A stretch of 64,000 nucleotides of DNA from positions 74,646-138,645 of the forward strand of contig JAJPHZ010000022.1 of assembly GCA_021325025.1 (NCBI GenBank), in the 5' to 3' direction. Under the pieces are notes generated by a model. It saw nothing but the letters and a program-made list of their open reading frames with translations, did no database searches and had not been told where the DNA came from. The stretch is from Pseudomonadota bacterium (GTDB lineage Bacteria; Desulfobacterota; Binatia; Binatales; Binataceae). A program made the translations under genes and the position numbers. This document shows, piece after piece, positions 565 to 45,043 of the stretch; position 1 is the first letter of the stretch, and the number at the start of each line of letters is the position of its first letter.

Positions 565-586
565 CGCGATGCCGGGGAGCAGGACA

Positions 587-1399
587 ATGAGAATGAGCGA
601 AAACTTCGTGGCAGCGTGGGCTGTGGCCGCAGGCCTGATGCTGGCCGGATGCGCGCCGGTTGCCACCAACGAGGGCGCCGAGCAATGGCGGCCGGTCTCC
701 GCCATGGCGGGCACCAGTCCGCAACTGGCGCAAAGCGAAGGCCGCCTGGCAAGGCAATGCGGCGGCGCGAATGGCGCGCGCGAGTACACCAACGCCACGC
801 TCGGCGAAGAGCGCACCGTCTACCGCATCCAGCGCGGCGACAAGCTGCATTTGACTTTCTACCGCAACGGCGAGTTGGACCGTTACGTCGTGGTGCGCCC
901 CGACGGCCGCTTTACGATTGAGCCGTTCGGCGACGTTTTGGCGGCCGGGCTTACGCCGGCGCAACTGGCGCAAAAGCTCGACGCCATCTTCTCCGAGGCG
1001 CTGTATGAGCCGAGCGCGGCAGTCAGCGTCATCGACAGTCCCTTCCGCAAGGTCTTTGTCGGCGGGCAGGTCAATTACCCCGGAGCGGTCAATCTGCGGC
1101 CGGGCATGACCGCCACGCAGGCGATTATCTCTACCGGATGGTTTCGCGATGATGCGCGCTACGACCAGATCGTGCTGATCCGGCGCGACGCCTGCGGAGA
1201 GGCCTACGGCACCTTTATTCAGGTGGCCAAGGCGGTGGCGCAGGCATCGGACAATCACCTGCAGGACGTGGCGCTGCTGCCCAACGACATCATCGTGGTG
1301 CCGCGCACCACGATCGGCAACCTCAACCTGTTCGTCAAGCAATACATCCGGGGCATGCTGCCGATGGAGCCCTATCTGAGCCTGGGGCCGCCGCTGTAA
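587..1399 (+). CDS. Wza-like polysaccharide export outer-membrane lipoprotein (Poly_export + SLBB domains)
   Basis: Lipobox LAGC after a signal peptide. Poly_export-type motifs are present (YRIQRGDKLHLTFY, PDGRFTIEPFGDV) followed by an SLBB-like segment (VFVGGQVNYPGAVNLRPGMTATQAI). A GGGGAG RBS sits 7 nt before ATG 587. Alternative starts are 569 and 593. Confidence 0.8.
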   Translation: MRMSENFVAAWAVAAGLMLAGCAPVATNEGAEQWRPVSAMAGTSPQLAQSEGRLARQCGGANGAREYTNATLGEERTVYRIQRGDKLHLTFYRNGELDRYVVVRPDGRFTIEPFGDVLAAGLTPAQLAQKLDAIFSEALYEPSAAVSVIDSPFRKVFVGGQVNYPGAVNLRPGMTATQAIISTGWFRDDARYDQIVLIRRDACGEAYGTFIQVAKAVAQASDNHLQDVALLPNDIIVVPRTTIGNLNLFVKQYIRGMLPMEPYLSLGPPL

Positions 1400-1423
1400 G
1401 CGCTGCGCTGACAAGGGGGGAAC

Positions 1424-2956
1424 ATGAAACATCACGAGCCCGCGGTTTGGCTGGAGACGATTTGGCGCCGGCGCCGCCCCGCCGCCTGGACGGCGGCGGG
1501 GCTGTTCGCGCTGATCGCGGCCGGCACCTTTGCATATCCGCCGATTTATGAATCCAGCGCGCGGGTTCTGGTCTCGCCCAACCGCGCCCACTATATCGTA
1601 TCGCCCGCCCTGCAATCGGCCAGCGACCCTAACGCGCCGGTGGTCAACGACCGCGAGATCGGCGAGCAGGACCTCAACTCCGAAATGGAGCTGATCACCC
1701 AGCGCCGCCTGATCGAGCAGGCTCTGGCGGATATGGCGGGGCGCGAGCCGGCGCCCAGCCTGCTCGGCCGCGCGCTCAACGCGCTGGCCGGCCTGCCGGT
1801 CGAGCTCAGCGCGATGCTGCACGGCGCGCCGCGGCCGACCGCGCTGCAGCGCCGGGCGCGGGCGGCGGAACGGCGCCTGTCGGCCAGCGTGATTCGCAAG
1901 TCCGATCTGCTGGAAGTCTCCTTCCGCTCGCGCCATCCGCAGTGGAGCCGCGAGTTCCTGTCCGCGCTGCTCAAGCGCTACTTCGAACTGCACGCGCAAA
2001 TCGTGCACGACGCGCGCTCCGAGCGCTTCTTCGAGCAGCAGATCCTGCGCCGCCGCCAGGCCCTGCACGCCGCCGAAGACCATCTGCGCGCCGTGCGCGA
2101 GCAGACCGGCATCCTGAGTCTTGCCGATCAGAGTGAAGCGATTGTCTACCAATTGTCGGGGTTTCAGGCCGAGTATCGCAAAAATCACAGCCGCCTGGAC
2201 GGCGTCAACCGCCAAATCGCGGCGCTGGAGGAAGGACTCAAGCAGTCGCCGATGCGTCTGCTCAAGGAGGTCAAGAGCGCGCCCAACCCGGCTTATGAGG
2301 CGCTCAAACCCAAGGTGCTGGCGCTCCAACTCAATCGCGACGACGTGCTGCGGCGCTATCGCCCCTCCAGCAAGCTGGCGCGCGAGGTAACCCAACAGAC
2401 TGCCAACGCCCAGAGTGTGCTGGAGCAGGAAGATTATCCCAAGGTGATCGAGCGGCTGAGCGACCTCAGTCCGATATGGCTGGGGCTCGCCTCCAATCTG
2501 GCGCAGGCGCGCGTGACCGCGGCGGCGCTGGCGCAAAGCCAGCGCACGCTGGCGGCCGAAATACAGACCTATCAAGCCGAACTGCAGCGTCTGACCAATG
2601 ACGGAGTGGAAGTGGAGCGGGCTGTGCGCGAGGTGGAGGCGGGCAATGAGGCGTATCTCTCCTACCTGCGCAAGGGCGAGCAGGCGCGCGCCGAGCTGCA
2701 ATTGAACGAAAGCCGAATCATGAACGTGGTGTTGGCGATGCCGCCCACCGAACCCATCGAACCGCGGTTTCCCCGTGCCGACCTCAACCTCGCCGCCGGC
2801 CTGGTGTTGGCGCTGTTTGCGGGTCTGGCCGCGGCGTGGTGGGAGGAGCGCCGCGATCCCACCATTTACTCGGCCGCGGCCATTGCAGAATCCGCGCCGG
2901 CGCCGGTTGTCGCGGTGCTGCGCGCGTGCGCGAAACCGGGCGCCGCCGGCGCCTGA
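1424..2956 (+). CDS. Polysaccharide co-polymerase / chain-length determinant (Wzz/GumC-like, PCP family, no kinase domain)
   Basis: N-terminal TM helix, a Wzz-like motif (PPIYESSARVLV), a long coiled-coil periplasmic region and a C-terminal TM helix (LNLAAGLVLALFAGLAAAWWEERRDP). A GGGGGGA RBS precedes the ATG. Confidence 0.75.
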   Translation: MKHHEPAVWLETIWRRRRPAAWTAAGLFALIAAGTFAYPPIYESSARVLVSPNRAHYIVSPALQSASDPNAPVVNDREIGEQDLNSEMELITQRRLIEQALADMAGREPAPSLLGRALNALAGLPVELSAMLHGAPRPTALQRRARAAERRLSASVIRKSDLLEVSFRSRHPQWSREFLSALLKRYFELHAQIVHDARSERFFEQQILRRRQALHAAEDHLRAVREQTGILSLADQSEAIVYQLSGFQAEYRKNHSRLDGVNRQIAALEEGLKQSPMRLLKEVKSAPNPAYEALKPKVLALQLNRDDVLRRYRPSSKLAREVTQQTANAQSVLEQEDYPKVIERLSDLSPIWLGLASNLAQARVTAAALAQSQRTLAAEIQTYQAELQRLTNDGVEVERAVREVEAGNEAYLSYLRKGEQARAELQLNESRIMNVVLAMPPTEPIEPRFPRADLNLAAGLVLALFAGLAAAWWEERRDPTIYSAAAIAESAPAPVVAVLRACAKPGAAGA

Positions 2957-2967
2957 GAAGCAAGGAG

Positions 2968-3687
2968 ATGAAAGTGCCCGACACTGCACAGGTAGCAGGC
3001 GCGCCGCAACCCGCACCGACGGCCGCCGCCATCCAGGGGGCGCCGGTCGCTGAACCGGCAATGCTCATGGTGCGCAGCGCAGGAATCCGGATGCTGACCG
3101 AACCGATCGCGGCGGCGGCCCGCCTGACGGGCCATACACGGGTCCTGATCGCCGCCTGCCGCCCCGGCGACGGCGCATCGACGGTAGCCGGCGCCCTGGC
3201 CCTGGACCTGGCGAGCCGACTCGGCATCGACACGCTGCTGGTTACCGCCGACGGCGCCGGTGCTGAAAGCCCGGCCGCCGGCAATGGCCGTCCGGTGCGG
3301 ACCAACCAAACCGGTGTGCCGCATCTGTGGCTCGCGCGCTGTACCAGATCCGGCGAGCCGGCGCGCGGCGGCGCGGCTGACGGCGAGCGTGCCGAGCGCG
3401 ACGCCGTCGTCGAGGAGCTGCGTGCGATCATCGGGCGTTATCGCGCCGCAATCATCGACCTCGGCGTGGTGCGCCTGGATGCACGCATGCTGGCGCTGGC
3501 GCGTCCCGAAGATCCGGTACTGGTGGTGGCGCGCTACGGATGCACGCAGCGCGAGGAACTGGCCGCCACACTGGCCGTAATCAACGTGGCCAACGCCAAA
3601 AGCGCCGGCGTGATTCTCAACGGCTACGAAAGTCCGGCCGCCGATCGGCTGCCGTGGATTTCGCATCCGGAGCACGAAGGGCGATGA
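2968..3687 (+). CDS. Degenerate BY-kinase/MinD-like P-loop protein (predicted pseudo-kinase partner of the PCP)
   Basis: AAGGAG RBS 2962-2967 then ATG 2968. A Walker-A-like segment (VLIAACRPGDGASTVAGALALDLA) resembles BY-kinase SxxGEGKST but lacks the Lys. The Walker-B-like segment (AAIIDLGVV) lacks the DxPP signature. Confidence 0.55.
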   Translation: MKVPDTAQVAGAPQPAPTAAAIQGAPVAEPAMLMVRSAGIRMLTEPIAAAARLTGHTRVLIAACRPGDGASTVAGALALDLASRLGIDTLLVTADGAGAESPAAGNGRPVRTNQTGVPHLWLARCTRSGEPARGGAADGERAERDAVVEELRAIIGRYRAAIIDLGVVRLDARMLALARPEDPVLVVARYGCTQREELAATLAVINVANAKSAGVILNGYESPAADRLPWISHPEHEGR

Positions 3688-4760
3688 ATCGGTCCGACAT
3701 CGGCGGCGATGGCCCGCCGGTCACAGCGCGCCGGCTGCGCGGAGTAGCAGTGGTGGGACTTGGTTACTGGGGACCCAACTGGGTGCGCAATCTGCAAGCC
3801 AGCGGGGTTTGCGATCGGATCGTAGCCTGCGACCTCGACGCCGCGCGCCGCCGCCACGTGGAACGGCTTTACCCGGGGGTGCGCACCTTCTCCAGTATCG
3901 ATCCGATCCTGGCCGACCCCGAAATCGAAGCGGTTATCATCGCCACTCCGGTGCACACCCATTGGGAGCTGGGGCGCCGATGCCTTGGGGCGGACAAATC
4001 GCTGCTGGTGGAAAAGCCACTGGCCTCCTCGGTCAAGCAGTGTGCGGAGCTGATCGAGATGGCGGCGGCGCGTGGTCTGGTGCTGATGGTCGGCCACACC
4101 TTCGAGTACAGCGCCTCGGTCATCAAGCTGTGCGAAATCGTCAATGCCGGCGAACTGGGCGAGATTTTCTACATCAGCTCCATCCGCACCAACCTGGGTC
4201 TGCTCCAGCAGGACATCAACGTGGTGTGGGACCTGGCGCCGCACGACATCTCGATCATCCTGGCGATTTTGGGCCGCGCCCCCGAATCGGTGAACTGCCA
4301 GGGGCGCAGCCACTACAACCCCGGCATCGAGGACGTCGCGATGCTGACCATGAGCTTTTCGGGCAACGTGATCGCCTTTGTGCATGTCAGTTGGCTGGAT
4401 CCCAACAAGATTCGCCGCATCACCGTGGTCGGTTCGCGCAAGATGCTGATCTACGACGACATCGCCTACCAGGAGCCGATCCGCATTTATGACAAGGGCG
4501 TCAGCGTGCTGCCCTACTACGACACCTTCGGCGAGTTCCGCTTCACCTACCGCTACGGCGACATTCTGGCGCCGCGGGTGGCGGAGGCCGAACCGCTCAA
4601 GGCCGAAACCGAGCACTTTATCGATTGCGTGCTGAACAAGCGCCGGCCGCGCAGCGACGGATTAAGCGGCCTGCGCGTGGTCAGCGTGCTGGAGGGGGCC
4701 GACGCCTCGCTGCGCCGCGACGGCGCGCTGGTGCCGGTCAAATACGCGGTGGCGAAATGA
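3684..4760 (+). CDS. Gfo/Idh/MocA-family NAD-dependent sugar-nucleotide dehydrogenase (WbpB/WlbA-like UDP-GlcNAcA 3-dehydrogenase)
   Basis: Rossmann motif VAVVGLGYWGPNWVRNL and Gfo/Idh/MocA core (EKPLASSVKQCAELIEMAAARGLVLMVGHTFEY). The ATGA start/stop overlaps the upstream gene. Confidence 0.75.
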   Translation: MNRSDIGGDGPPVTARRLRGVAVVGLGYWGPNWVRNLQASGVCDRIVACDLDAARRRHVERLYPGVRTFSSIDPILADPEIEAVIIATPVHTHWELGRRCLGADKSLLVEKPLASSVKQCAELIEMAAARGLVLMVGHTFEYSASVIKLCEIVNAGELGEIFYISSIRTNLGLLQQDINVVWDLAPHDISIILAILGRAPESVNCQGRSHYNPGIEDVAMLTMSFSGNVIAFVHVSWLDPNKIRRITVVGSRKMLIYDDIAYQEPIRIYDKGVSVLPYYDTFGEFRFTYRYGDILAPRVAEAEPLKAETEHFIDCVLNKRRPRSDGLSGLRVVSVLEGADASLRRDGALVPVKYAVAK

Positions 4761-5257
4761 GCAATTCCTCTCTGCCGCCCAATGTCGTGGTGGCGCCCGA
4801 TGTCAAGCTGGGCCGCGGCGTCAGGCTGTCGCCCTTCGTCAACCTCTACGGCTGCTCGATCGGCGAGGAGACCACCATCGGGGCGTTTGTCGAAATCCAG
4901 CGCGGCGCCAGGATCGGGCGGCGCTGCAAGATCTCCAGCCATAGCTTTGTGTGCGACGGCGTGGAAATCGAGGACGAAGTCTTCGTCGGCCACGGCGTGG
5001 TTTTCATCAACGATCGCTATCCGCGCGCCACCAACCCGGACGGCTCGCTCAAAAGCGCGGGGGACTGGGCGATGGAACGGACCGTGGTGCGCCGGCGCGC
5101 GGCGATCGGCAGCGGCGCCGTGATCATGTGCGGAGTTGAAATCGGCGAGGGCGCGTTGGTGGGAGCGGGCGCGCTGGTCACGCGCAACGTCGCGCCCGGA
5201 GCGCTGGTGGCGGGAAATGCCAGCCGTCACTACGCCGGTGTGGCACCCCGGGATTAG
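4757..5257 (+). CDS. Left-handed beta-helix (hexapeptide-repeat) N-acetyltransferase, WbpD-like
   Basis: Repeated hexapeptide [LIV]-G-x-x-x-x units (VKLGRGVRLSPFVNLYGCSIGEETTIGAFVEIQRGARIG...). Its position between the WbpB-like and WbpE-like genes fits. ATGA overlap with the upstream stop. Confidence 0.75.
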   Translation: MSNSSLPPNVVVAPDVKLGRGVRLSPFVNLYGCSIGEETTIGAFVEIQRGARIGRRCKISSHSFVCDGVEIEDEVFVGHGVVFINDRYPRATNPDGSLKSAGDWAMERTVVRRRAAIGSGAVIMCGVEIGEGALVGAGALVTRNVAPGALVAGNASRHYAGVAPRD

Positions 5258-5265
5258 GTCGGCAT

Positions 5266-6396
5266 ATGAGTATCAAATTTCTGGATCTGGCGGCGCAAAA
5301 TCGCGAAATCGCCCAGCGTGCCGCCCGCGAGTTGGAGGCGCTGCACGCCGCGACCAGTTACGTGGGCGGTCCGGCGCTGGCCGCGTTCGAGCGGGAGTTC
5401 GCCGCCTACCTCGGGGTCAAGTACGTCGTCGGCGTCGGCAGCGGCAGCGACGCCCTGCGCCTGGCGCTGCTCGCACTGGGTATCGGCCCGGGCGATGGCG
5501 TGATCACGGTGCCGATGACCTTCATTGCCACCGCGGCGGCCATCGTGCAGGCGGGCGCGGTGCCCGAATTCGTCGACGTCGATCCCTCGACCTGCAACCT
5601 CAGTCCCGACCATCTGTGCCGCTACCTGGAGGCGGGGCGCTTCCGGTCGCCCAACGGACCACGCGCCGTAATCCCGGTGGACCTCTACGGGCTGCCCTGC
5701 GCGATGGACCAGGTCGCCGCGATCGCGCACCAGTATAAACTGCTGGTAGTCGAAGATGCCTGTCAGGCGCATGGTGCGCGGCTGTCAGTAGGGGGCCGAT
5801 GGGTCCGGGCGGGCACGCTCGCCGACGCCGGCTGCTTCAGCTTCTATCCGGCCAAGAACCTGGGCTGCTGGGGCCAGGGCGGTGCGCTTGCCACCAACGA
5901 CGAACGGCTGGCCGCGGTCGCGGCGCGGCTGGCCGACCACGGCCGCACGTCCCATTATGGACACGAGGCTTACGGCTACAACGCCCGGCTCGACACGCTC
6001 CAGGCGGCGGTGCTGCGCGCCAAGCTGGAGCATCTGGAGGACTGGAACCGGCGCCGGCGCGCGATTGCCGCGCGCTACCGCGAACTGCTCAACGGCTGCG
6101 GCGCGCTGCTGCCCGAGGAACCGGCAGGATTGGAATCCTGCTACCATCTGTTCACCATCCGCAGCGCCCGGCGCGACGCCATCCGCGCGGCGCTCAACGC
6201 GGCCGCAATCGGCAACGGCATCCATTATCCGCTCCCGCTCCACCTGCAGCCGGCCTGCGCCGCGCTGGGTTATCGGCCGGGCGATTTTCCCGCCAGCGAA
6301 CGCATCGCCGAAACCACCCTGTCGCTGCCGATGCATCCGCATCTGACCGACGACGAGGTCGCAACCGTCGCCGCAGTGGTACGCGGCGCGTTGTAG
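5266..6396 (+). CDS. DegT/DnrJ/EryC1/StrS-family PLP-dependent sugar aminotransferase (WbpE-like)
   Basis: Family-typical N-terminus (ELEALHAATSYVGGPALAAFEREFAAYLGVKYVVGVGSGSDALRLAL) and length of about 375 aa. Confidence 0.8.
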   Translation: MSIKFLDLAAQNREIAQRAARELEALHAATSYVGGPALAAFEREFAAYLGVKYVVGVGSGSDALRLALLALGIGPGDGVITVPMTFIATAAAIVQAGAVPEFVDVDPSTCNLSPDHLCRYLEAGRFRSPNGPRAVIPVDLYGLPCAMDQVAAIAHQYKLLVVEDACQAHGARLSVGGRWVRAGTLADAGCFSFYPAKNLGCWGQGGALATNDERLAAVAARLADHGRTSHYGHEAYGYNARLDTLQAAVLRAKLEHLEDWNRRRRAIAARYRELLNGCGALLPEEPAGLESCYHLFTIRSARRDAIRAALNAAAIGNGIHYPLPLHLQPACAALGYRPGDFPASERIAETTLSLPMHPHLTDDEVATVAAVVRGAL

Positions 6397-6407
6397 GAGG
6401 GGCGGCG

Positions 6408-7064
6408 ATGGCGGCTAGCGCGACGCGCTCGGACCTGCGCGCCTTTAATCCAGTGCGCAAGCGGGTTCTGGACCTGGTGCTGCTGGTCCCAATCCTGCTG
6501 GTGGCCGGGCCGCTGATGGCGCTGGTGGCGCTGGCGATTTGGCTGTGCGACGGCCGCCCGATTCTGTTTCGCCAGGTGCGCCTGGGAATGGGTGGACGGC
6601 CGTTTGAAATGCTCAAGTTCCGCACCATGCGTCCGGCCAGCGACGCGGCCCATCGCGAGTACGCCGCCCGATGGATCGAACAAGGCCGCCCATTCAGCGA
6701 CGGAGATGGCGCGGTCTACAAAATGGCGGACGATCCGCGCATCACACGCCTGGGCGCCATCCTGCGCCGCTTCAGCCTGGACGAACTGCCCCAGCTCATC
6801 AACGTCGTGCGCGGCGAGATGAGTCTCATCGGGCCGCGGCCGGCGATTCCTTACGAAGTCGAGCATTACCAGCCCTGGCATCGCCGCCGCCTGGAGGCGC
6901 CGCCGGGGCTGACCGGGCTGTGGCAGGTAAGCGGACGCAACCGGCTGTCGTTCGACGAGATGGTACGCCTGGACATCGACTACATCGATCACTGGTCGGT
7001 GGCGCGCGACCTGGCCATCCTGGCGCGAACGCCACGCGCGGTTCTTGCGGGAGAAGGGCGATGA
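6408..7064 (+). CDS. Small bacterial sugar transferase (polyprenyl-phosphate phosphoglycosyltransferase, PglC/EpsL-like)
   Basis: AGGAGGGG RBS then ATG 6408. One N-terminal TM helix followed by the Bac_transf core ([24 protein letters not shown]...[21 protein letters not shown]). Confidence 0.8.
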
Positions 7065-8560
7065 AACGGGAGGCCGCGCATGCTCCTCGCGCCCAGGCCG
7101 ACGACCGCCGGCTGTGGCGGGCATTCGCCCGCAGCGTGCTGTTCAACGTGCAGGCCGAGTTGGTTGCCAACCTGATTCGGGTGGGCGGCGTGATTTTTCT
7201 GGCGCGCGCCCTGGAGCCGCGCGACTTCGGCCTGCTGCGCATCCTGATCGTGCTCGGCGCGATCGCCGCGCTGATCGGCACCGCCGGGTTTCCCGAAGCG
7301 GTCATCCAGCGCAAGGAACTGTCGGGCGAGCATCAGACCACCGCCTGCTACCTGACCGCGGCGTGCGCCGGCGCGGTCGCCGCGATGCTGTTCGCCGCTG
7401 CGCCGCTGATTGAACGGCTGATGGCGATGGGGCATCTGGGTGCGATGATTCGCCTGCTGTGCGTGCCGATCTTTGTCGAAGGCACCTCGGCAATCCCCAA
7501 CGCCATCCTGCAACGCGCGCTTCGCTACGACGCGCTGGCCGCCGCCGACATCATCGCGGAGGGCGGTTTCGTCGCCGCCGCCGTCGCGTTGATTTACCTG
7601 GGGTTGCCCCGCCTCAGCCTGCCCGGCGGTCTGGGTGCACGCGCCCTGCTGCGCGGCGTCGCGATCTGGGCCGCGGCACGATTTGTTCCACGCGGCGCGC
7701 CCAGCCTGGGCGCCGCGCGCGAGCTATGGCCGTTTGCGGTCAGTGTGCTGGGCGGACAGACCCTGGTGATCCTGTCGCAAAACGCGGACTACGTGATGGT
7801 TGGACGGCTGCTGGGCGGCCGCGCGCTGGGCTTCTACGGCATGGCCTGGGACCTGCTGCGTTTCATCCCCGAACGCCTGTACCGGGTGGTAGGCCGCGTC
7901 ACACTGCCCGCCTTCAGCGCCATCTAGGAGCGGCAAAGCGAGCTGGCGCGCAGCTATCGCGCACTGATCGCGATGGTCGGGCGGATGCTGCTGCCGGCGA
8001 TGGCGCTGCTGGCGATCGCGGCTCCCAAACTGATTGTTACGATCTACGGGACAAAGTGGATGCCCGCCGCGCTGCCGCTGCGGCTGCTCACACCCGGACT
8101 GGCGCTGATCGGACTGCGCCTGGCGATCGGCTCCATCTACTATGCGCGCGGCTTTCCCGCCACCGACATTTTCGTCCACGGCCTGCGGTTGATCGCAATC
8201 GTGGCGGCGGTGGGGCTGACGGCGCCGCTGGGATTGGCGGCGGTGTGCGCCGCGATGAGCGCGGTGGAAGGCGCCGTGAGCGTGGCCGGGCAGTGGATCG
8301 TCTGCCGCATGATCAGGCTGGGTGCGTTGACCTTGGCCGCCGCCACCCTGCCGGGATTGTACAGCGCGGTGCTGTGTTCGGTGGTTGCGCTGGCCGGTGC
8401 GGCGCTGGCGGCGTGGCTGGCGGTGGCGGCGTGGCTGGCGCTGCTGGTGATGCTGGCGCCGGCGGGAGCCGCGTGGTGCTGGCGCGAACGCGCCACCGTG
8501 CGCGTGCTGTTGGGCGGCACGGACTTGCTCTCCAGCGCCGCCGAAGCGATGGGAGGATAA
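7061..8560 (+). pseudogene. Wzx-type polysaccharide flippase (MOP superfamily) interrupted by an in-frame TAG at 7925-7927
   Basis: ORFs 7061..7927 and 7973..8560 are in the same frame (both coordinate mod 3 = 2). Together they read as one typical 12-TM Wzx (...LPAFSAI*ERQSELARSYRALIAMVGRMLLPAMALLAIAAPKLIVTIYGTKWMPA...). TAG is used as a genuine stop elsewhere in this window (6394-6396). Confidence 0.55.
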
Positions 8561-8563
8561 CGC

Positions 8564-9427
8564 GTGACGCCACGCTATCTTGCCATCACTCCGGCGCGCG
8601 ATGAGCAACGCTTCCTGCCCGGACTGATCGCCAGCATGCGCGCGCAAACCATCGCACCGCAGCGCTGGATCATCATCGACGACGCCTCCACCGATTGCAC
8701 CGGCGCCATCATCGACGAGGCCGCCCGCACAACGCCGTGGATTGAGCCGCATCATCTGAAATCGGATCGCCCGCGCCAGGCCGGCGGCGAATCGGTAATC
8801 ATGCGCTTTCTTACCCGCGATCGATGGCAGGACATGGACTTCATCTTCCGCCTCGACGCCGACTTGAGTTTCGGTCCCGACCTGGTCGCGTTGCTGCTTG
8901 CCGAATTTGAGCGCGACCCGCGCCTGGGCATCGCCAGCCCGATCCTGGCCGAGCCGGCCGGTGGCGGAAGATGGAAGGATGTTGCGCTGCGTCCGATGCA
9001 CACCCGAGGGGCGGCCAAGATGTACTCGCGCGCGTGCTTTGAAGTGGTGGGAAAGCTCGAACCCGAGCTGGGTTGGGACGTGATTGACGGGGTGCGAGCC
9101 CAGATGGCGGGGTTCAGGACGCGCACCTTTTCTCATATCCGCTGCTTTCACCATCGGCCGCAAGGCTCCGCCGGCGGCCGGCTGCGCGGGCACTACGCGC
9201 TGGGCCGCTCCGCCTGGTACGTGGGCTATTCGCCGCTGTTCCTGCTGGCCGCAGCCCTGCGGCGCATCGCTGAGCCGCCCTTCGCGTTGGGCTCGCTGAT
9301 GATTATCGCCGGATACCTGGAGGGTCTGGTGAAACGCCGTCCGCGCGTGGACGATCCCGACCTGATCAGGTTTGTACGCCGCCAACAGCGCCGGCGCCTG
9401 CTGCTGATGGACTCGCTGTGGAGCTGA
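8564..9427 (+). CDS. Family 2 glycosyltransferase
   Basis: GT-A N-terminus (LAITPARDEQRFLPGLIASMRAQTIAPQRWIIIDDASTD). GGGAGGA RBS then GTG start at 8564. Confidence 0.7.
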   Translation: MTPRYLAITPARDEQRFLPGLIASMRAQTIAPQRWIIIDDASTDCTGAIIDEAARTTPWIEPHHLKSDRPRQAGGESVIMRFLTRDRWQDMDFIFRLDADLSFGPDLVALLLAEFERDPRLGIASPILAEPAGGGRWKDVALRPMHTRGAAKMYSRACFEVVGKLEPELGWDVIDGVRAQMAGFRTRTFSHIRCFHHRPQGSAGGRLRGHYALGRSAWYVGYSPLFLLAAALRRIAEPPFALGSLMIIAGYLEGLVKRRPRVDDPDLIRFVRRQQRRRLLLMDSLWS

Positions 9428-9431
9428 GCTT

Positions 9432-10652
9432 GTGCTGGGGGGACACGAACAGAGCGCCGCACCGGTCAGCGCGCCTCAACCCGTAGCGCGCAGCGCGGCG
9501 ATGCCGGCGCAAAAGCGCGCCATGATGCTGGGGTACCTGACCTACAGCATCGACGCGCGGGTCAAGCGCCAGGTCAAGACGCTGGCCGCGGCCGGCTACG
9601 CCGTGGACGTGATTTGCCTGGCGGACGACATCGGCCAGGCGCGCGACGCCAATCTGATCGGTATCAAGGTGCCGCATTACCGGGGCCTCAGCCGCTGGCG
9701 CTATGTCCGCGCCTACGCAACGTTTTTCATCAAAGCCGCCTGGACCGCGGCGTGCCTGGCGATACGCCATCGCTACGACGTCGCGATCGTCTGCAGCATG
9801 CCCGACTTCATCGTCGCCTGCGCGCTGGGACCCAAGCTGCGCGGCGCGACCATCGTGCTCGACGTGCACGATCCGATGCCGGAACTCTACCGCGTCAAAT
9901 TCGGGCGGCCGGCCGGATGTCTGGGCGAACGGTTGCTGATGCTGGAGGAGCGGGTCAGCGCCTGGATGGCGGACCGGGTCCTGGCCACCCACGACCTGCA
10001 TCTCAGCCGGCTGGTGCAAGCGGGCATTCCGCGCAGCAAGCTGCGCGTCGTGCTCAACGCGCCCAATCCCGAGTTGTTTCCTTACAGCGACCGCCCGCTG
10101 CGGCGCGGCGGCGGTCTGCGCCTGGTCTATCAGGGCACGATGTCGGCGCGGCTGGGGATCGATGTGGCGATCCGCGCAATGCGCCTGCTGCGGGCACGCA
10201 TCCCGGGAATCGAACTGCTGCTGATCGGGAACGGCGAAGCGCTGGAGGATTACAAGCGGCTGGCTGGCGCGCTGGAGGTGGCGGACATCGTGCGCTTCGA
10301 GCCGCCCATCCCCGTGGAGCGCATCGCGCCGGTCCTGCATTCGTGTTCGATTGGCGTGGTCCCCAATCGCGACAATGCCGCCACCCGCCTGATGCTGCCG
10401 GTCAAGCTGATGGAATACGCGATGCTCGGGGTTCCGATCGCGGCGGCGCGGCTTGCGCCAATCCTGCAGTATTTCGACGCGCGTGCGGTGGAATTCTTCG
10501 AGCCGGAGAATCCGGCTGATCTGGCCGCCGCAATCGTGCGGCTTTATGAAAATCCCGACCGCCTTGCGCAAATGGCGGCCGCCGCCAATCGCGTCGCGCT
10601 GCGGCTGAGCTGCGGGTGGAGCGAAAACTACCTGGAGGCGATCGCATCGTGA
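9432..10652 (+). CDS. Family 4 (GT-B) glycosyltransferase
   Basis: C-terminal GT4 core (RLVYQGTMSARLGIDVAIRAMRLL...IELLLIGNGEALEDYKRLAG...LMEYAMLGVPIAAARL). The start is uncertain: GTG 9432 or ATG 9501 / ATG 9522 (MMLGYLTY begins the first beta strand). Confidence 0.7.
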   Translation: MLGGHEQSAAPVSAPQPVARSAAMPAQKRAMMLGYLTYSIDARVKRQVKTLAAAGYAVDVICLADDIGQARDANLIGIKVPHYRGLSRWRYVRAYATFFIKAAWTAACLAIRHRYDVAIVCSMPDFIVACALGPKLRGATIVLDVHDPMPELYRVKFGRPAGCLGERLLMLEERVSAWMADRVLATHDLHLSRLVQAGIPRSKLRVVLNAPNPELFPYSDRPLRRGGGLRLVYQGTMSARLGIDVAIRAMRLLRARIPGIELLLIGNGEALEDYKRLAGALEVADIVRFEPPIPVERIAPVLHSCSIGVVPNRDNAATRLMLPVKLMEYAMLGVPIAAARLAPILQYFDARAVEFFEPENPADLAAAIVRLYENPDRLAQMAAAANRVALRLSCGWSENYLEAIAS

Positions 10653-12574
10653 GCGCACCCACCATTGAGTTCCGCCCCTGGCCGGGCGAGCCGCATTACA
10701 CATCGCTCACCGCTGCCGCGCTCTTCATCGCGGCCCTTTCGATTTGGGCGCTGGCCGTGATGTTGTTCGCACCCGCCGCGATTACGACCCTGGCCCTGTT
10801 CGCCATCGCGCTGCTGTTGGTGTCGGCCGGCCTTGCCTACCAGCGCTCGGACTGGCGCATGCTCGCGTTGCTGCTGGTGGTCGAGGCGCTGCCGTCGGCC
10901 AATCTGCTGCCGATCACCGAAGATCAGCGCCCGCTGGTGCGCTATCCGCTGTACCTGTTCTTCTGCGTTCCAATGCTGCCCAAAGTATGGCGTTCGGGAA
11001 TTCTCTCGCACGGCGGTTTCCGTCTGTATTCGATCTACTTCGCTTGGGCACTGTTGAGCGCTACGTGGTCGCTGGTGCCGATATTCTCCTTCGGCCGCGC
11101 CCTGGCCTCGACCCTGCTGTTCGTGGCGCTGTGCTCGATCGCCCTCGACATCGCCGACAACGACGCGCTGCTGCGCGTCATCCGCTATGTGTTGGCGGCC
11201 TGCGCGATCCTCACCGCAATCATCGCGGTTACCGCCTTCATCCCCGGACTGGAATCCGCCTGGATGTTCGACGCCGAGTTGGGCGCCTATCGCCTGCAAG
11301 GCATCTTCGACTCGCCCAACCAGGTCGGCGAGGTGAACATGATAGCGATCGGCGCGGCGCTGGCCAGTTGGCAGTCCCTGCGTACCCGCACCTACAAGCT
11401 CGGTGCTGCGTTGCTGATCGTGGTCTCGGTGCTGATGATGGTCGCGGCGGACTCGCGCTCGGCGGCGGTTGCGATGATCGTGAGCATGGCGGCGCTGGCG
11501 ATCTGGCGCTTTGGATGGCGCGGCGTGTTCGGGGTGATGGTGGGCGTAGCGGCCGGGGTGTTCGTAGCCGGTCAGTTAAGTCCGCAGGCGCTGCTGTACC
11601 TGACCCGCAGCGACGTCGCAACGCTAACCGGCCGCACCCAGGTGATGCATTTTTCGCTGCATCGAGTGATGGAAAATCCGCTGCTCGGTTATGGTTTCGG
11701 CGCCGAGGGACAAATCTTCCACAACCGCTATTTCCCGTTGTGGGAAGACCTGTGGACGTGGGGACCGCGCATCCCCATCCATAACGGCTATCTCTCGCGT
11801 GCCGTCGGACTGGGCGTGCCCGCCGCGCTGCTGTGGGCGTTTTTGTTTGCGCGCCCGTTCGTGGTGCTGTTCAGCCGGCCCGCGGACCCCTACGGACTGC
11901 GCAAGCCCGTGGTGTTGCTGCTCGTGCTGCCGGTGCTCATTTTGTATCTGAGCGAAACCCTGGGCGGCGATTGCCGCTTCCCGGCCGGAATCGTCAGCAC
12001 GCTGGTGTGGGCGGTGGCAGAAAAGGAACGCCTGCGCGCCACGGGCGCGTTGCCTGCGCGCAATCAGTCGGCCTCAACCCCGGCGCCCGTGGTGCCCCGG
12101 CGCGCAATGTCCCGCCTGTTGTTCCTCGCCGGTTTCATCTTGCCAATAACCATCGCGTCCGCGCGCAGCGCCCACGCCTACCGCCTGCATGTCCCGTGCA
12201 CCAGCAGCCACGATTGCCCGCGCGGCGCGTTTTGCCGCCATAAGACGAATTTCCGCGGCCAGTGCATCGTGCCGCCCCTGATGCCGTTCGGCGTGTTTGA
12301 ACGGCGCCAGATCGAATTTCCCGCCCAGCCCCTTCCTTTCGAGCACGCGCCGGGCTCGATAGCGGTGCTGCGATGCTCGGTCAAAGAGCCCTGTCCGCCC
12401 GGCTTCGTGTGCGCGAAATACGGCACCTCCAGTCTGAAAGAATCGCTGTGTGTGCCTTCCTCCGAACCGTGCTGGTCAACCGCCGACTGCGCTCCGGAGG
12501 ACATCTGTGACAAGGCCAACGATGAATTCAGCCTCACCGGCGTCTGCCGGCCGCGCGAGGAGGTCGGGGAATAG
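10649..12574 (+). CDS. O-antigen polymerase/ligase-family membrane protein (Wzy-like) with a C-terminal Cys-rich extracytoplasmic extension
   Basis: GTG start overlaps the upstream stop (GTGA). Multiple TM helices and a Wzy_C-like loop (VLMMVAADSRSAAVAMIVSMAALAIW...HFSLHRVMENPLLGYGFG). The C-terminal roughly 130 aa carry three Cys-rich units (HDCPRGAFCRH...GQC; EPCPPGFVCAKYG...SLC; EPCWSTADCAPEDICDK...GVC). Confidence 0.7.
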   Translation: MSAPTIEFRPWPGEPHYTSLTAAALFIAALSIWALAVMLFAPAAITTLALFAIALLLVSAGLAYQRSDWRMLALLLVVEALPSANLLPITEDQRPLVRYPLYLFFCVPMLPKVWRSGILSHGGFRLYSIYFAWALLSATWSLVPIFSFGRALASTLLFVALCSIALDIADNDALLRVIRYVLAACAILTAIIAVTAFIPGLESAWMFDAELGAYRLQGIFDSPNQVGEVNMIAIGAALASWQSLRTRTYKLGAALLIVVSVLMMVAADSRSAAVAMIVSMAALAIWRFGWRGVFGVMVGVAAGVFVAGQLSPQALLYLTRSDVATLTGRTQVMHFSLHRVMENPLLGYGFGAEGQIFHNRYFPLWEDLWTWGPRIPIHNGYLSRAVGLGVPAALLWAFLFARPFVVLFSRPADPYGLRKPVVLLLVLPVLILYLSETLGGDCRFPAGIVSTLVWAVAEKERLRATGALPARNQSASTPAPVVPRRAMSRLLFLAGFILPITIASARSAHAYRLHVPCTSSHDCPRGAFCRHKTNFRGQCIVPPLMPFGVFERRQIEFPAQPLPFEHAPGSIAVLRCSVKEPCPPGFVCAKYGTSSLKESLCVPSSEPCWSTADCAPEDICDKANDEFSLTGVCRPREEVGE

Positions 12575-12623: not shown

Positions 12624-13487
12624 ATGGGCCTGATTGGCAACACCCCGTTGACCGTGCTGCGCGCCGCCGGCCGGACCTCGCGCTTGATTGCCGGCCTCGG
12701 CGCGCGCTCCGCAGGCGGGCGCTGCCTAATCCTGACCTACCATGACTTCGTCGACCGCGCCGCCGCCGACCTGTTTGCGCGGCAGATGCAATATCTAAGC
12801 GTTGCCGCAAGTGTGGTCACGCTGGACGCGCTGCTTGAGGCGGCGCACCGCGGCGCATCTCACGGCATCCGCTGCGCAATCACCTTCGACGATGGCTACG
12901 AAGCGGTTTACCGCGAGGCCCTCCCGCATCTGCAGGAACATGGCTTTCCGGCGACGCTATACCTCGCGAGCGGTTTCATCCGCGAATCATTGAATTTCGC
13001 CGATTGCAGCGGGCGGTCGGGACTGCGCCCGGGACGCCCGATGCTGTCATGGCGCCAGGTGCGTGAACTGGACCGATGCGGCGTATGCGTCGGCTCGCAC
13101 ATGAGCGAGCATGGCGATCTGTCGGTTTTAGGCAGGCACGAGGCGATGGAGCAGTTGCGCCGCTCGCGCATCGAGATAGAGCAGCGCCTGGGCAAGCGCT
13201 GCGAGCATTTCGCCTATCCCTTCGGCCGCTTCACCGCGCAGGCTGTGCAGTGGGTGCGCGAAGCGGGGTTTCGCACCGCCGCGACCACGGTGCATCGGCC
13301 GCTGCGCGCCAACGACGATCTCTTGAGGCTGCCCAGGGCGGGCATCCAGGAGCGCTATTCGCTGGAGGATTTCAAAAGCATCATCCGCGGCGACTGGGAC
13401 TTCATCGGCCTGCTCCAAACCCTGCGCCGCCCCGCCTTGCGGATGACTTGTGCGCGCGCTACGCGGTCACCTTACCCCGGTTCGTAA
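12624..13487 (+). CDS. Polysaccharide deacetylase (NodB-homology / CE4 family)
   Basis: NodB motifs: TFDDGY (motif 1), H-x4-H-like CVGSHMSEHGDL, and FAYPFG (motif 3-like). Confidence 0.7.
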   Translation: MGLIGNTPLTVLRAAGRTSRLIAGLGARSAGGRCLILTYHDFVDRAAADLFARQMQYLSVAASVVTLDALLEAAHRGASHGIRCAITFDDGYEAVYREALPHLQEHGFPATLYLASGFIRESLNFADCSGRSGLRPGRPMLSWRQVRELDRCGVCVGSHMSEHGDLSVLGRHEAMEQLRRSRIEIEQRLGKRCEHFAYPFGRFTAQAVQWVREAGFRTAATTVHRPLRANDDLLRLPRAGIQERYSLEDFKSIIRGDWDFIGLLQTLRRPALRMTCARATRSPYPGS

Positions 13488-43895: not shown

Positions 43896-44434
43896 GGTTT
43901 CCTCCCTGGCCGTTGGCCAATCCGAAAACAGTAGGTACTACGAGCGCGGCCCGCGTGCCAACCAGCAGAGCGCGGCCTGAACCGCGCTGTCGTTCGTAGT
44001 ACCGCGCAAGAATCCCAAGCCGGACGAACAAGTTTCCGCGACCCAAACCGGCTGGTAATAGCTGAGCACCGGAAGAAAAACGCGGTGCTGCACAAAGCTC
44101 TTGGTCCGCAGGCCCCCAAAAGGAGTTGAACGAGAGCTCCGTGGGGTTGCATTTTTTCTGCGGTCAAGGCAAATCTTAGAGTCGCATTGGAAGTCGATGG
44201 CAAGATTGGCGGCATAAAAAAAACGCGCGGCGGAACAGACCCCATTTTCTGCAAATTAACGATGTCCAAGTTTAGCTATTGATTTCAGAATTTACGTCTG
44301 ATAGTTGTTTTGCCGCAAGACGCTGAAACGATGGCGGAGCAGGTTTTTCTCCTTCATTTCTTTTGATGACCCCGTCATCTATGTATCATTGGCGAGGTTA
44401 AGGCAGATTGGAAAAGCGTGACGAGCTTCCGAAC

Positions 44435-44474
44435 GGTTCCTTCGTTTTAAGGAACCCTTGGTCATTTTCCGATC
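44435..44474 (+). other. Strong stem-loop (8-bp stem GGTTCCTT/AAGGAACC, 6-nt loop) followed by a T-rich tract, inside the 1.15-kb intergenic region
   Basis: Perfect complementarity is seen directly in the sequence, followed by cttggtcattttcc. It is terminator-like but has no upstream protein gene on this strand. Confidence 0.3.
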
Positions 44475-45043
44475 TTACTGACGAGGCCAGCATAATGCTG
44501 AAGCCAGAGTGTTCAATTCGCTAGCTTCTTGGGCTCTGGCTGCAGTTGTGGGGGCTCCGGAGTTGCTGACTTGTGGGAAATCCCGAAAGTTTGCGCCAGT
44601 TTGCGGAAAGCTGACCGCAAATCTGTGTGGCTAGCGGCTCCAAGATGCTAGCGGACGGCTCCGGAGGCTGTGGACATCCTCTGGACCGAAAACGGGTTGC
44701 CGATCGAAGGAACGGCCGACCCGGTGGGCTGCATTGACGCGTTAAAGGGGGTTATCGTTAAAAGCAGCACGTTTTTACTGCTGCGCAACAACCGTGTGGG
44801 CTTCCCAGCACGGGATGGCGGACGCGTGTTCAAAAGGCCAAGACCGCCAATCCGAAGGATTTTCGGATCAGATCTTACCTTTTATAACTTGAAAGCTGCT
44901 ATTTGTCCTCTCACCTTTGCGGAATCGGGAGCGAGGCCCGTGATTTGCCCATCCCGGCGAAACGGCTGGTTTCGCCTCGCTCCAACTCCGCCTGTCGGAC
45001 CTAAAGGCTCAATGCGTTTTTGGAGGCCGGAGGGTAGGCTCTG

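Follow-up and report, generated by a model that had tools for sequence, protein, structure and literature searches.

In-frame fusion of a Wzy_C-type membrane glycosyltransferase gene with the gene of a predicted secreted 12-cysteine protein in Binataceae

Introduction

In WaaL, a 12-transmembrane (12-TM) enzyme of the Wzy_C GT-C superfamily, conserved Arg and His residues sit on a long loop in the periplasm (PMC10920833). Bimodular Wzy_C enzymes are already known: in the O-antigen ligase WadA (GT121 + GT25), a Wzy_C-type membrane enzyme is fused to a module of the same pathway, and the fused forms cluster phylogenetically, which has been taken as evidence of coupled action (PMC10920833). Partners of Wzy are known as well, namely the Wzz/PCP co-polymerases (e.g., in the WzyE-WzzE complex), which face the periplasm, bind Wzy and regulate it (PMC10030265). 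Here, we describe a gene of a Binataceae bacterium in which a Wzy_C membrane core continues, within one open reading frame (ORF), into a Cys-rich tail. The gene lies in a stretch of 64,000 nucleotides (assembly GCA_021325025.1, contig JAJPHZ010000022.1, positions 74,646 to 138,645 of the forward strand; hereafter the window, to which positions refer unless a related locus is named). The reading that we favour, and hold to be fairly likely, is a natural fusion of wzy with the gene of a secreted Cys-rich protein that serves as a periplasmic accessory subunit of an exopolysaccharide polymerase.

A fusion of this kind raises the matter of processing, for which two systems provide comparisons. LtaS, a polytopic synthase of an envelope polymer, is cut by SpsB, a signal peptidase of type I, between its membrane and extracytoplasmic domains; there, what is set free is the catalytic domain, and the enzyme loses its activity on cleavage (PMC12260438). 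In the window fusion, the released part would be a former separate protein and the predicted cleavage would restore a two-protein state. The cytochrome b/c1 protein FbcH of Bradyrhizobium japonicum is reportedly made as one polypeptide, in which an internal signal peptide directs export of the second part and undergoes cleavage afterwards. Its partners are said to be encoded by separate genes elsewhere; the processing was reportedly shown experimentally, in a protein family unrelated to Wzy.

The fused gene and its separate counterparts

The gene is a single open frame that runs without interruption from 10616/10649 to 12574 on the + strand. The GTG start at 10649 is preceded by GGAGG, overlaps the stop codon of the upstream GT4 gene, and agrees with the N-termini of homologs and with a database protein, P0001 (641 residues, 100% identical), that is present in NCBI, ENA and Logan. 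The original prediction of a Wzy-like protein carrying a C-terminal triple Cys-rich module is borne out by this one ORF of 641 residues. It had also placed a tail of about 130 residues beyond a hydrophobic segment near 12120, which corresponds to a segment at residues 487-510 followed by a tail of 131 residues. The parts of the gene are the following:

10649..12574, + strand: complete fused ORF, 641 residues plus stop (Wzy_C core, linker, predicted internal signal peptide, Cys-rich domain), from the ORF list; equals P0001
10649..12040, + strand: Wzy_C/WaaL-fold GT-C membrane core, residues 1-464, from Pfam, AlphaFold2 (AF2) and Foldseek
12041..12106, + strand: Arg-rich linker TGALPARNQSASTPAPVVPRRA, residues 465-486 (22 residues), putatively cytoplasmic, from junction comparison
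12107..12178, + strand: signal-peptide-like segment MSRLLFLAGFILPITIASARSAHA, residues 487-510, which aligns with the N-terminal signal peptides of at least 24 stand-alone homologs
12179..12571, + strand: mature 131-residue Cys-rich domain with 12 Cys, predicted to lie in the periplasm and to be disulfide-bonded; identity with the downstream ORFs of relatives is 57-75%

About 35 homologs match the whole protein, nearly all of them (about 30) being of ~485 residues and ending just past the core. Among these, the tail is retained in frame only in the window protein (P0001), P0002 (621 residues, 72% identity) and P0003 (641 residues, 66%). A cluster look-up adds P0073 (641 residues) and P0076 (649 residues), bringing the fused sequences to five distinct ones, which come from independent assemblies in NCBI, ENA, Logan and JGI. 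In all examined unfused relatives with a Wzy at least 50% identical, the tail is encoded directly 3' of wzy, past the stop codon and in another frame, by an ORF with its own N-terminal signal peptide and Ala-x-Ala site. The same arrangement is seen by tblastn in 10 loci retrieved via Wzy-core or tail homologs, where the order is GT4, Wzy, Cys-rich ORF and then, in most, a deacetylase, and where the Cys-rich ORF lies past the stop in another frame in every case save the fused L009. The order Wzy, Cys-rich, deacetylase is likewise found in L013 and L014. Most homologs thus lack the extension within the Wzy ORF, and the suggestion that it derives from a fused small gene is the option that gains support, as the module is a separate signal-peptide gene 3' of wzy in most relatives. 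The earlier caveat that the extension might belong to a different ORF holds for these relatives but not for the window or the four other fused sequences.

The junctions differ accordingly in their make-up. In unfused loci, the wzy stop codon is followed by 113-443 nt before the mature domain, with a frame offset of +2; in fused loci, core and mature domain are bridged by 51-58 in-frame codons, and in the window the Arg-rich linker stands where relatives have the stop codon and the intergenic spacer. The window junction is 47 nt shorter than that of the nearest unfused relative, L001, which is the size expected of a deletion that removed the stop and restored the frame. In L013, the most divergent partner-bearing locus (Wzy 52% identical), the ATG of the partner overlaps the TGA stop of wzy as ATGA (6446-6449 of that locus), which suggests translational coupling.

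In L001 (7485-7575), L006 (5911-6001) and probably L002, the signal-peptide and mature parts of the small ORF are in different frames. P0039, which comes from other contigs, runs through this break uninterrupted (…GFAGGARAYRLHV…). The break is an indel in a G/C run, with the ORF missed by gene callers, and may represent either an assembly error or a pseudogene.

Given that indels do occur in assemblies of metagenome-assembled genomes (MAGs), that the small ORF of L001, L002 and L006 is frameshifted relative to P0039 and that the window wzx gene contains an in-frame TAG, the fusion could itself be an artefact of assembly or sequencing, with an overlooked stop or indel hiding two genes in the true genome. 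We consider this hardly credible. The identical 641-residue product is found in NCBI, ENA and Logan, and a near-identical one (P0073, at least 90%) on three JGI contigs; P0002, P0076 and P0003, down to about 66% identity, keep the frame; and a junction shorter by 47 nt is no single-base difference. A frameshift between 12100 and 12200, which the original prediction had wished to see checked, is absent, the frame being continuous and colinear with two fused homologs (66-72% identity). Because the frame is continuous in the window and in four other distinct fused sequences, the window ORF is a natural fusion of two normally adjacent, separate genes.

The tail is under purifying selection: the ratio of nonsynonymous to synonymous substitution rates (dN/dS) is 0.08-0.26 for the tail, in fused and unfused forms; for the core it is 0.15-0.21 when relatives of 64% identity or more are compared. 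The three fused loci are monophyletic in 0 of 300 bootstrap replicates (neighbour-joining, on the core by itself and on core plus tail), and a clade uniting the unfused L001, L003 and L004 with the fused window and L014, to the exclusion of the fused L009, has 96% support. As the fused forms are not monophyletic, we infer that fusion or fission occurred at least twice, a conclusion that rests on a gene tree built by distance methods.

The Cys-rich domain and its family

Of the 16 Cys residues of the protein, 12 lie in the 131-residue tail and four in the 486 residues that precede the hydrophobic segment. The tail Cys form three units spaced C-x5-C-x5-C-x9/12/12-C. In a six-frame translation of the window, a regular expression for this spacing has three matches within the tail and three outside it, with ~0.1 matches expected per shuffled window. 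The three similar units of the original prediction are therefore real, but each holds exactly four Cys and not four to six. All 12 are conserved throughout the family alignments, and unit 1 sits in the stretch that the family conserves most strongly (HVPCTSSHDCPRGAFCRH). The units and the segment between the first two are:

12197..12265, + strand: Cys unit 1 CTSSHDCPRGAFCRHKTNFRGQC (C-x5-C-x5-C-x9-C), from the pattern match and invariant columns
12266..12373, + strand: Pro-rich inter-unit segment (PFG...R..E.P...GS..LR), conserved and predicted to be disordered, from conservation and AF2
12374..12451, + strand: Cys unit 2 CSVKEPCPPGFVCAKYGTSSLKESLC (C-x5-C-x5-C-x12-C), from the pattern match and alignment
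12470..12547, + strand: Cys unit 3 CWSTADCAPEDICDKANDEFSLTGVC (C-x5-C-x5-C-x12-C), from the pattern match and alignment

In the AF2 model of the tail, the units are three small beta-hairpins (predicted local distance difference test, pLDDT, 62), and the inter-unit segment is disordered yet conserved in sequence (pLDDT below 50 for mature residues 38-60). The window tail has six private substitutions at near-invariant positions, five of them in the inter-unit segment (G41E, P49A, S51P, D52L and P62A, mature numbering) and the sixth, S105A, in unit 3. In the tail tree, it is the longest ingroup branch.

Several named Cys-repeat families score on the tail, all below their curated cutoffs: DUF7107 (21.9 vs 24.6), DX (20.6 vs 25), Dickkopf_N (17.4 vs 25), Lustrin_cystein (15.4 vs 27) and Myxo_Cys_RPT (TIGR04201; 14.1 vs 25). 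The tail fits instead an unnamed, Wzy-linked family of 12-Cys secreted proteins of Binataceae (P0039-P0063, P0067 and P0068), with which it shares the 131-residue mature domain, 57-75% identity, 12 aligned Cys, the HVPCTSSHDCPRGAFCRH motif and the position 3' of a Wzy core. A search with the tail only matches 24 stand-alone proteins of 156-237 residues, and those with a named source are all Candidatus Binataceae. The family is small, a profile search of 1.84 billion representative proteins giving only seven clusters with an E below 1e-10. All members whose source is named are from uncultured Binataceae. Five tail loci occur in GTDB species genomes, two of them titled Binataceae and three titled only as (uncultured) Proteobacteria MAGs.

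Wider relatives are few. The profile search and a second profile search add only the six-member P0064 group, which aligns with the tail at an hhalign probability of 93.9% (E 1.5e-7) and 25-27% identity. Proteins of the P0064 type share with the tail family a signal peptide followed by three PC-x-[ST]S-x-DCP-x-G-x-x-C-x-H...G-x-C units, but lack the conserved inter-unit segment and are not beside Wzy. P0064, P0070 and P0069 (L011 482-982, L015 1425-2057 and L016 4609-5016, respectively) are small secreted proteins with three tandem PC-x-[ST]S-x-DCP-x-G-x-x-C-x-H…G-V-C-V units, encoded near genes of the TctC/Bug family and not near polysaccharide genes.

Internal signal peptide and topology

The stand-alone homologs begin with a positively charged n-region and an uncharged stretch of 11-24 residues, and carry a small-x-small site directly before the mature start, which after A-x-A is conserved as (F/Y)RLHVPCTSSHDC (also written (F/Y)RLHVPCTSSHDCPRGAFCRH). 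Of the 30 sequences in the signal-peptide alignment, 29 have Ala at position -3 and 28 have Ala or Gly at position -1. By these features, their N-termini are classical signal peptides of the Sec/signal peptidase I type. Residues 487-510 of the window protein have the same make-up, with a positive n-region (PRRAMSR), an h-region (LLFLAGFILPITIASA) of 16 uncharged residues that include a Pro, and A-H-A at -3 to -1; n-region charge, h-region length and the small residues at -3 and -1 are all those of a Sec-type signal peptidase I substrate, as far as sequence can tell.

The placement of the tail follows from the core. A long loop at residues 311-389, in which R320, R329 and H378 are invariant among 11 homologs, is followed in the AF2 model by helices at 390-409, 418-435 and 444-464; the loop at 410-417 and the linker that follows the last helix are rich in Arg and Lys. 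Three helices past a periplasmic loop, together with these positive regions, would leave the end of the core in the cytoplasm, and a cytoplasmic C-terminus plus one segment inserted N-in/C-out puts the tail in the periplasm. An independent cue for export is that the same domain carries an N-terminal signal peptide in relatives. Helix parity and signal peptide thus both support the periplasmic placement originally predicted, and a periplasmic, disulfide-bonded tail can be predicted with high confidence.

Less firm is what happens to the segment after insertion. The A-H-A site, the short Pro-containing h-region and the AF2 model without a helix at this place fit with cleavage by signal peptidase I, which we predict at A-H-A with moderate confidence. 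The segment might instead persist uncleaved as a permanent 13th TM anchor, tethering the Cys module to the polymerase, a possible but doubtful outcome that differs from the favoured reading in processing only. Since the segment lies within a polytopic protein, signal peptidase may fail to reach it; in the fused P0003, the uncharged stretch is longer, at 21 residues; and permanently bimodular enzymes of the Wzy_C family exist, such as WadA (PMC10920833). However, the h-region of the window protein numbers just 16 uncharged residues and contains Pro, the canonical A-H-A falls exactly at the mature N-terminus of the stand-alone homologs, AF2 shows no stable helix for the segment, and the cut that SpsB makes in LtaS occurs in a polytopic synthase too (PMC12260438).

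Two other possibilities were considered. Separate translation of the tail from the ATG at 12107 is unlikely, as there is no Shine-Dalgarno-like sequence upstream and P0002 and P0003 have no Met at this position. Export by Tat is rejected on the aligned N-termini, in which twin-Arg motifs are inconsistent among family members.

The membrane core and its gene cluster

The core matches Pfam Wzy_C (PF04932) over residues 256-397 with 56.8 bits against a cutoff of 31.7. It is modelled by AF2 with pLDDT mostly above 90, and the best Foldseek match of this model in the PDB is WaaL (7TPG; E 1.5e-7, TMt 0.63). In common with WaaL, it has the fold; the invariant Arg and His of its long, predicted periplasmic loop are candidate counterparts of the WaaL catalytic residues. 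The two differ in that identity is 16%, in that WaaL has no 13th hydrophobic segment or Cys-rich periplasmic tail, and in genomic context, which in the window points to a polymerase and not to a lipid A-core ligase; the RfaL equivalog NF012031 scores 22.3 bits, short of its cutoff of 277. An unpaired Cys in the core (C442, in a short periplasmic loop) was considered as a partner-specific feature and rejected, for it is also present in homologs without the partner. The genes around the fusion are:

9432..10652, + strand: GT4 glycosyltransferase with a stop that overlaps the start of wzy; synteny is kept in all related loci (Pfam, tblastn)
12624..13487, + strand: polysaccharide deacetylase (Polysacc_deac_1), syntenic in most related loci (Pfam, tblastn)
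569..9427, + strand: rest of a Wzx/Wzy-type exopolysaccharide cluster (Pfam and NCBIfam scans)

The last of these regions encodes a Wza-like exporter, a Wzz/PCP-like protein (1424-2956), a GFO/IDH/MocA oxidoreductase, a hexapeptide acetyltransferase, a DegT aminotransferase, a Bac_transf protein, a Wzx flippase and a GT2. The GFO_IDH_MocA, hexapeptide and DegT genes resemble, and may form, a sugar-modification trio of the WbpB/D/E type. The Wzy_C gene is single in the cluster and the only polymerase candidate. With Poly_export, Wzz-like, Bac_transf, Polysacc_synt, GT2 and GT4 genes present and a single Wzy_C gene among them, the Wzy_C core is probably the repeat-unit polymerase of the cluster.

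A different assignment, that the Wzy_C protein is an O-oligosaccharyltransferase (O-OTase) of the PglL, TfpO or PglS type and the Cys-rich protein its dedicated glycosylation acceptor, seems to us quite improbable. O-OTases are members of Wzy_C that a Pfam match alone does not distinguish from ligases or polymerases. Genes of this type often lie beside those of their acceptors, tfpO adjoining pilA and pglS adjoining comP. The cluster contains pgl-like parts (Bac_transf, DegT aminotransferase, hexapeptide acetyltransferase, flippase and two glycosyltransferases), and the tail has conserved Ser/Thr motifs (CTSSHDC, YGSS and CWST). However, the Wza-like exporter and the Wzz/PCP-like protein imply a polymer and hence a polymerase, for which there is no other candidate. 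A Pfam scan of the full protein, up to E 1, gives neither a PglL_A-type region nor another O-oligosaccharyltransferase match, though a protein without such matches may still have O-OTase activity. It would be unusual for an enzyme to be fused with its stoichiometric substrate, and the known acceptors of O-OTases are glycosylated in flexible low-complexity regions, unlike a compact 12-Cys protein.

Two further observations concern the surroundings. An ORF at 2836-3687 overlaps with the Wzz/PCP-like gene at the end of the latter; its only match is a weak one to AAA_26, and it possibly encodes the tyrosine-kinase-like ATPase of a PCP that is split in two. The GC content at 44001-45000 is 0.53, compared with 0.57-0.70 elsewhere in the window.

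Partnership with the polymerase

In the mechanism that we propose, the ancestral state would be a gene for a Wzy_C membrane glycosyltransferase with an adjoining small 3' gene for a Sec-exported protein of 131 residues and 12 Cys. Deletion of the wzy stop codon and the intergenic spacer would have joined the frames, turning the former N-terminal signal peptide into an internal, 13th hydrophobic segment inserted N-in/C-out. This would carry the Cys-rich domain to the periplasm, where its three 4-Cys units would become disulfide-bonded. Signal peptidase I probably then frees the same mature protein that the separate gene of relatives makes; otherwise, the domain would stay tethered. The Cys-rich protein would most likely work with the polymerase at the periplasmic face as an accessory subunit, and the fusion would enforce 1:1 co-delivery.

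A functional partnership with Wzy, at moderate confidence, is the reading with the best support: the partner lies strictly 3' of wzy, junctions overlap, the partner co-occurs with a single Wzy subclade, and fusion has recurred. Its part may be to bind glycan, to hand off chains, to regulate or to stabilise, and any one such assignment is weak. The carbohydrate-binding or chain-handoff role first suggested for the module gains no evidence, for or against, from family, fold or docking results. A stronger version, in which the 12-Cys protein is an obligate periplasmic subunit of the Wzy polymerase, supplied in trans or, as a polyprotein cut by signal peptidase I, in cis, with fusion or fission marking the interaction, is tentative and, to our mind, rather doubtful. 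Compared with WadA, whose extra domain is a recognisable globular glycosyltransferase, the window protein has an unclassified exported 12-Cys module with its own signal peptide. Compared with Wzz, the Cys-rich protein is proposed as another periplasmic partner of Wzy, but Wzz proteins are two-TM coiled-coil oligomers to which it has no similarity, and the window cluster already has a Wzz/PCP-like gene.

The small protein might also have nothing to do with Wzy, being a defensin-like, metal-binding or structural secreted peptide whose fusions are tolerated accidents of a short spacer. Its distant relatives P0064, P0069 and P0070 are encoded beside TctC and other unrelated genes, its weak matches are to generic Cys repeats (Lustrin_cystein, Dickkopf_N, DX and Nodulin_late), and docking on the core has no support from AF2, the full-length model giving no confident placement of the tail. 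Even so, we judge this account unlikely. The position 3' of wzy is kept across Wzy divergence down to 52% identity, including the ATGA overlap, whereas no Cys-rich partner ORF is found near Wzy homologs at 34-41% identity. Fusion or fission at least twice and purifying selection that persists in fused forms also count against it, and an independently exported protein is not expected behind a 12-TM protein unless co-delivery is acceptable or useful.

Several points weigh against the proposed accessory subunit as a whole. Adjacency and fusion are linkage, not physical interaction, and the distant relatives of the Cys-rich protein (the P0064 group) do not adjoin Wzy genes. The tail has no significant match in Pfam or NCBIfam (at their cutoffs), in PDB sequence profiles or among PDB folds (Foldseek, none at E below 1). 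The topology is based on the parity of helices, on the positive-inside rule and on the homology of the segment to signal peptides of stand-alone proteins; it makes use of AF2 helices and loop charges, a Kyte-Doolittle TM scan being too coarse for the purpose. In the full-length AF2 model, made from a block alignment of Wzy homologs and stand-alone tails, pLDDT is below 50 at 480-573, the hydrophobic segment is not modelled as a helix and the tail is not modelled confidently, so that the model speaks neither for nor against docking. That the fused forms keep A-x-A might reflect inheritance and not selection. Finally, the window wzx gene (7061-8560, + strand) has an in-frame TAG at 7925-7927, where L004, L007 and L009 have CAG (Gln); it otherwise aligns end to end with the flippase of L001 at 76% identity. 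Nonsense mutation, a variant within the population and an error of sequencing are all possible sources of the TAG, and the pathway of this genome may be impaired by it.

Significance

A literature search finds no report of a Cys-rich periplasmic partner of Wzy or of such a fusion. The scope is narrow, as the family is tiny and, judged by its members of named source, confined to uncultured Binataceae. Should the predicted processing be true, the protein would be a further bacterial polytopic enzyme with an internal, probably cleavable signal peptide. Apart from the Wzz co-polymerases, little is understood of how Wzy is controlled on its periplasmic side, and a Rosetta-stone fusion of this kind points to a candidate new partner. 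If the Cys-rich protein were indeed an obligate subunit, Wzy-type polymerases would have in it their first known accessory factor that is rich in disulfides.

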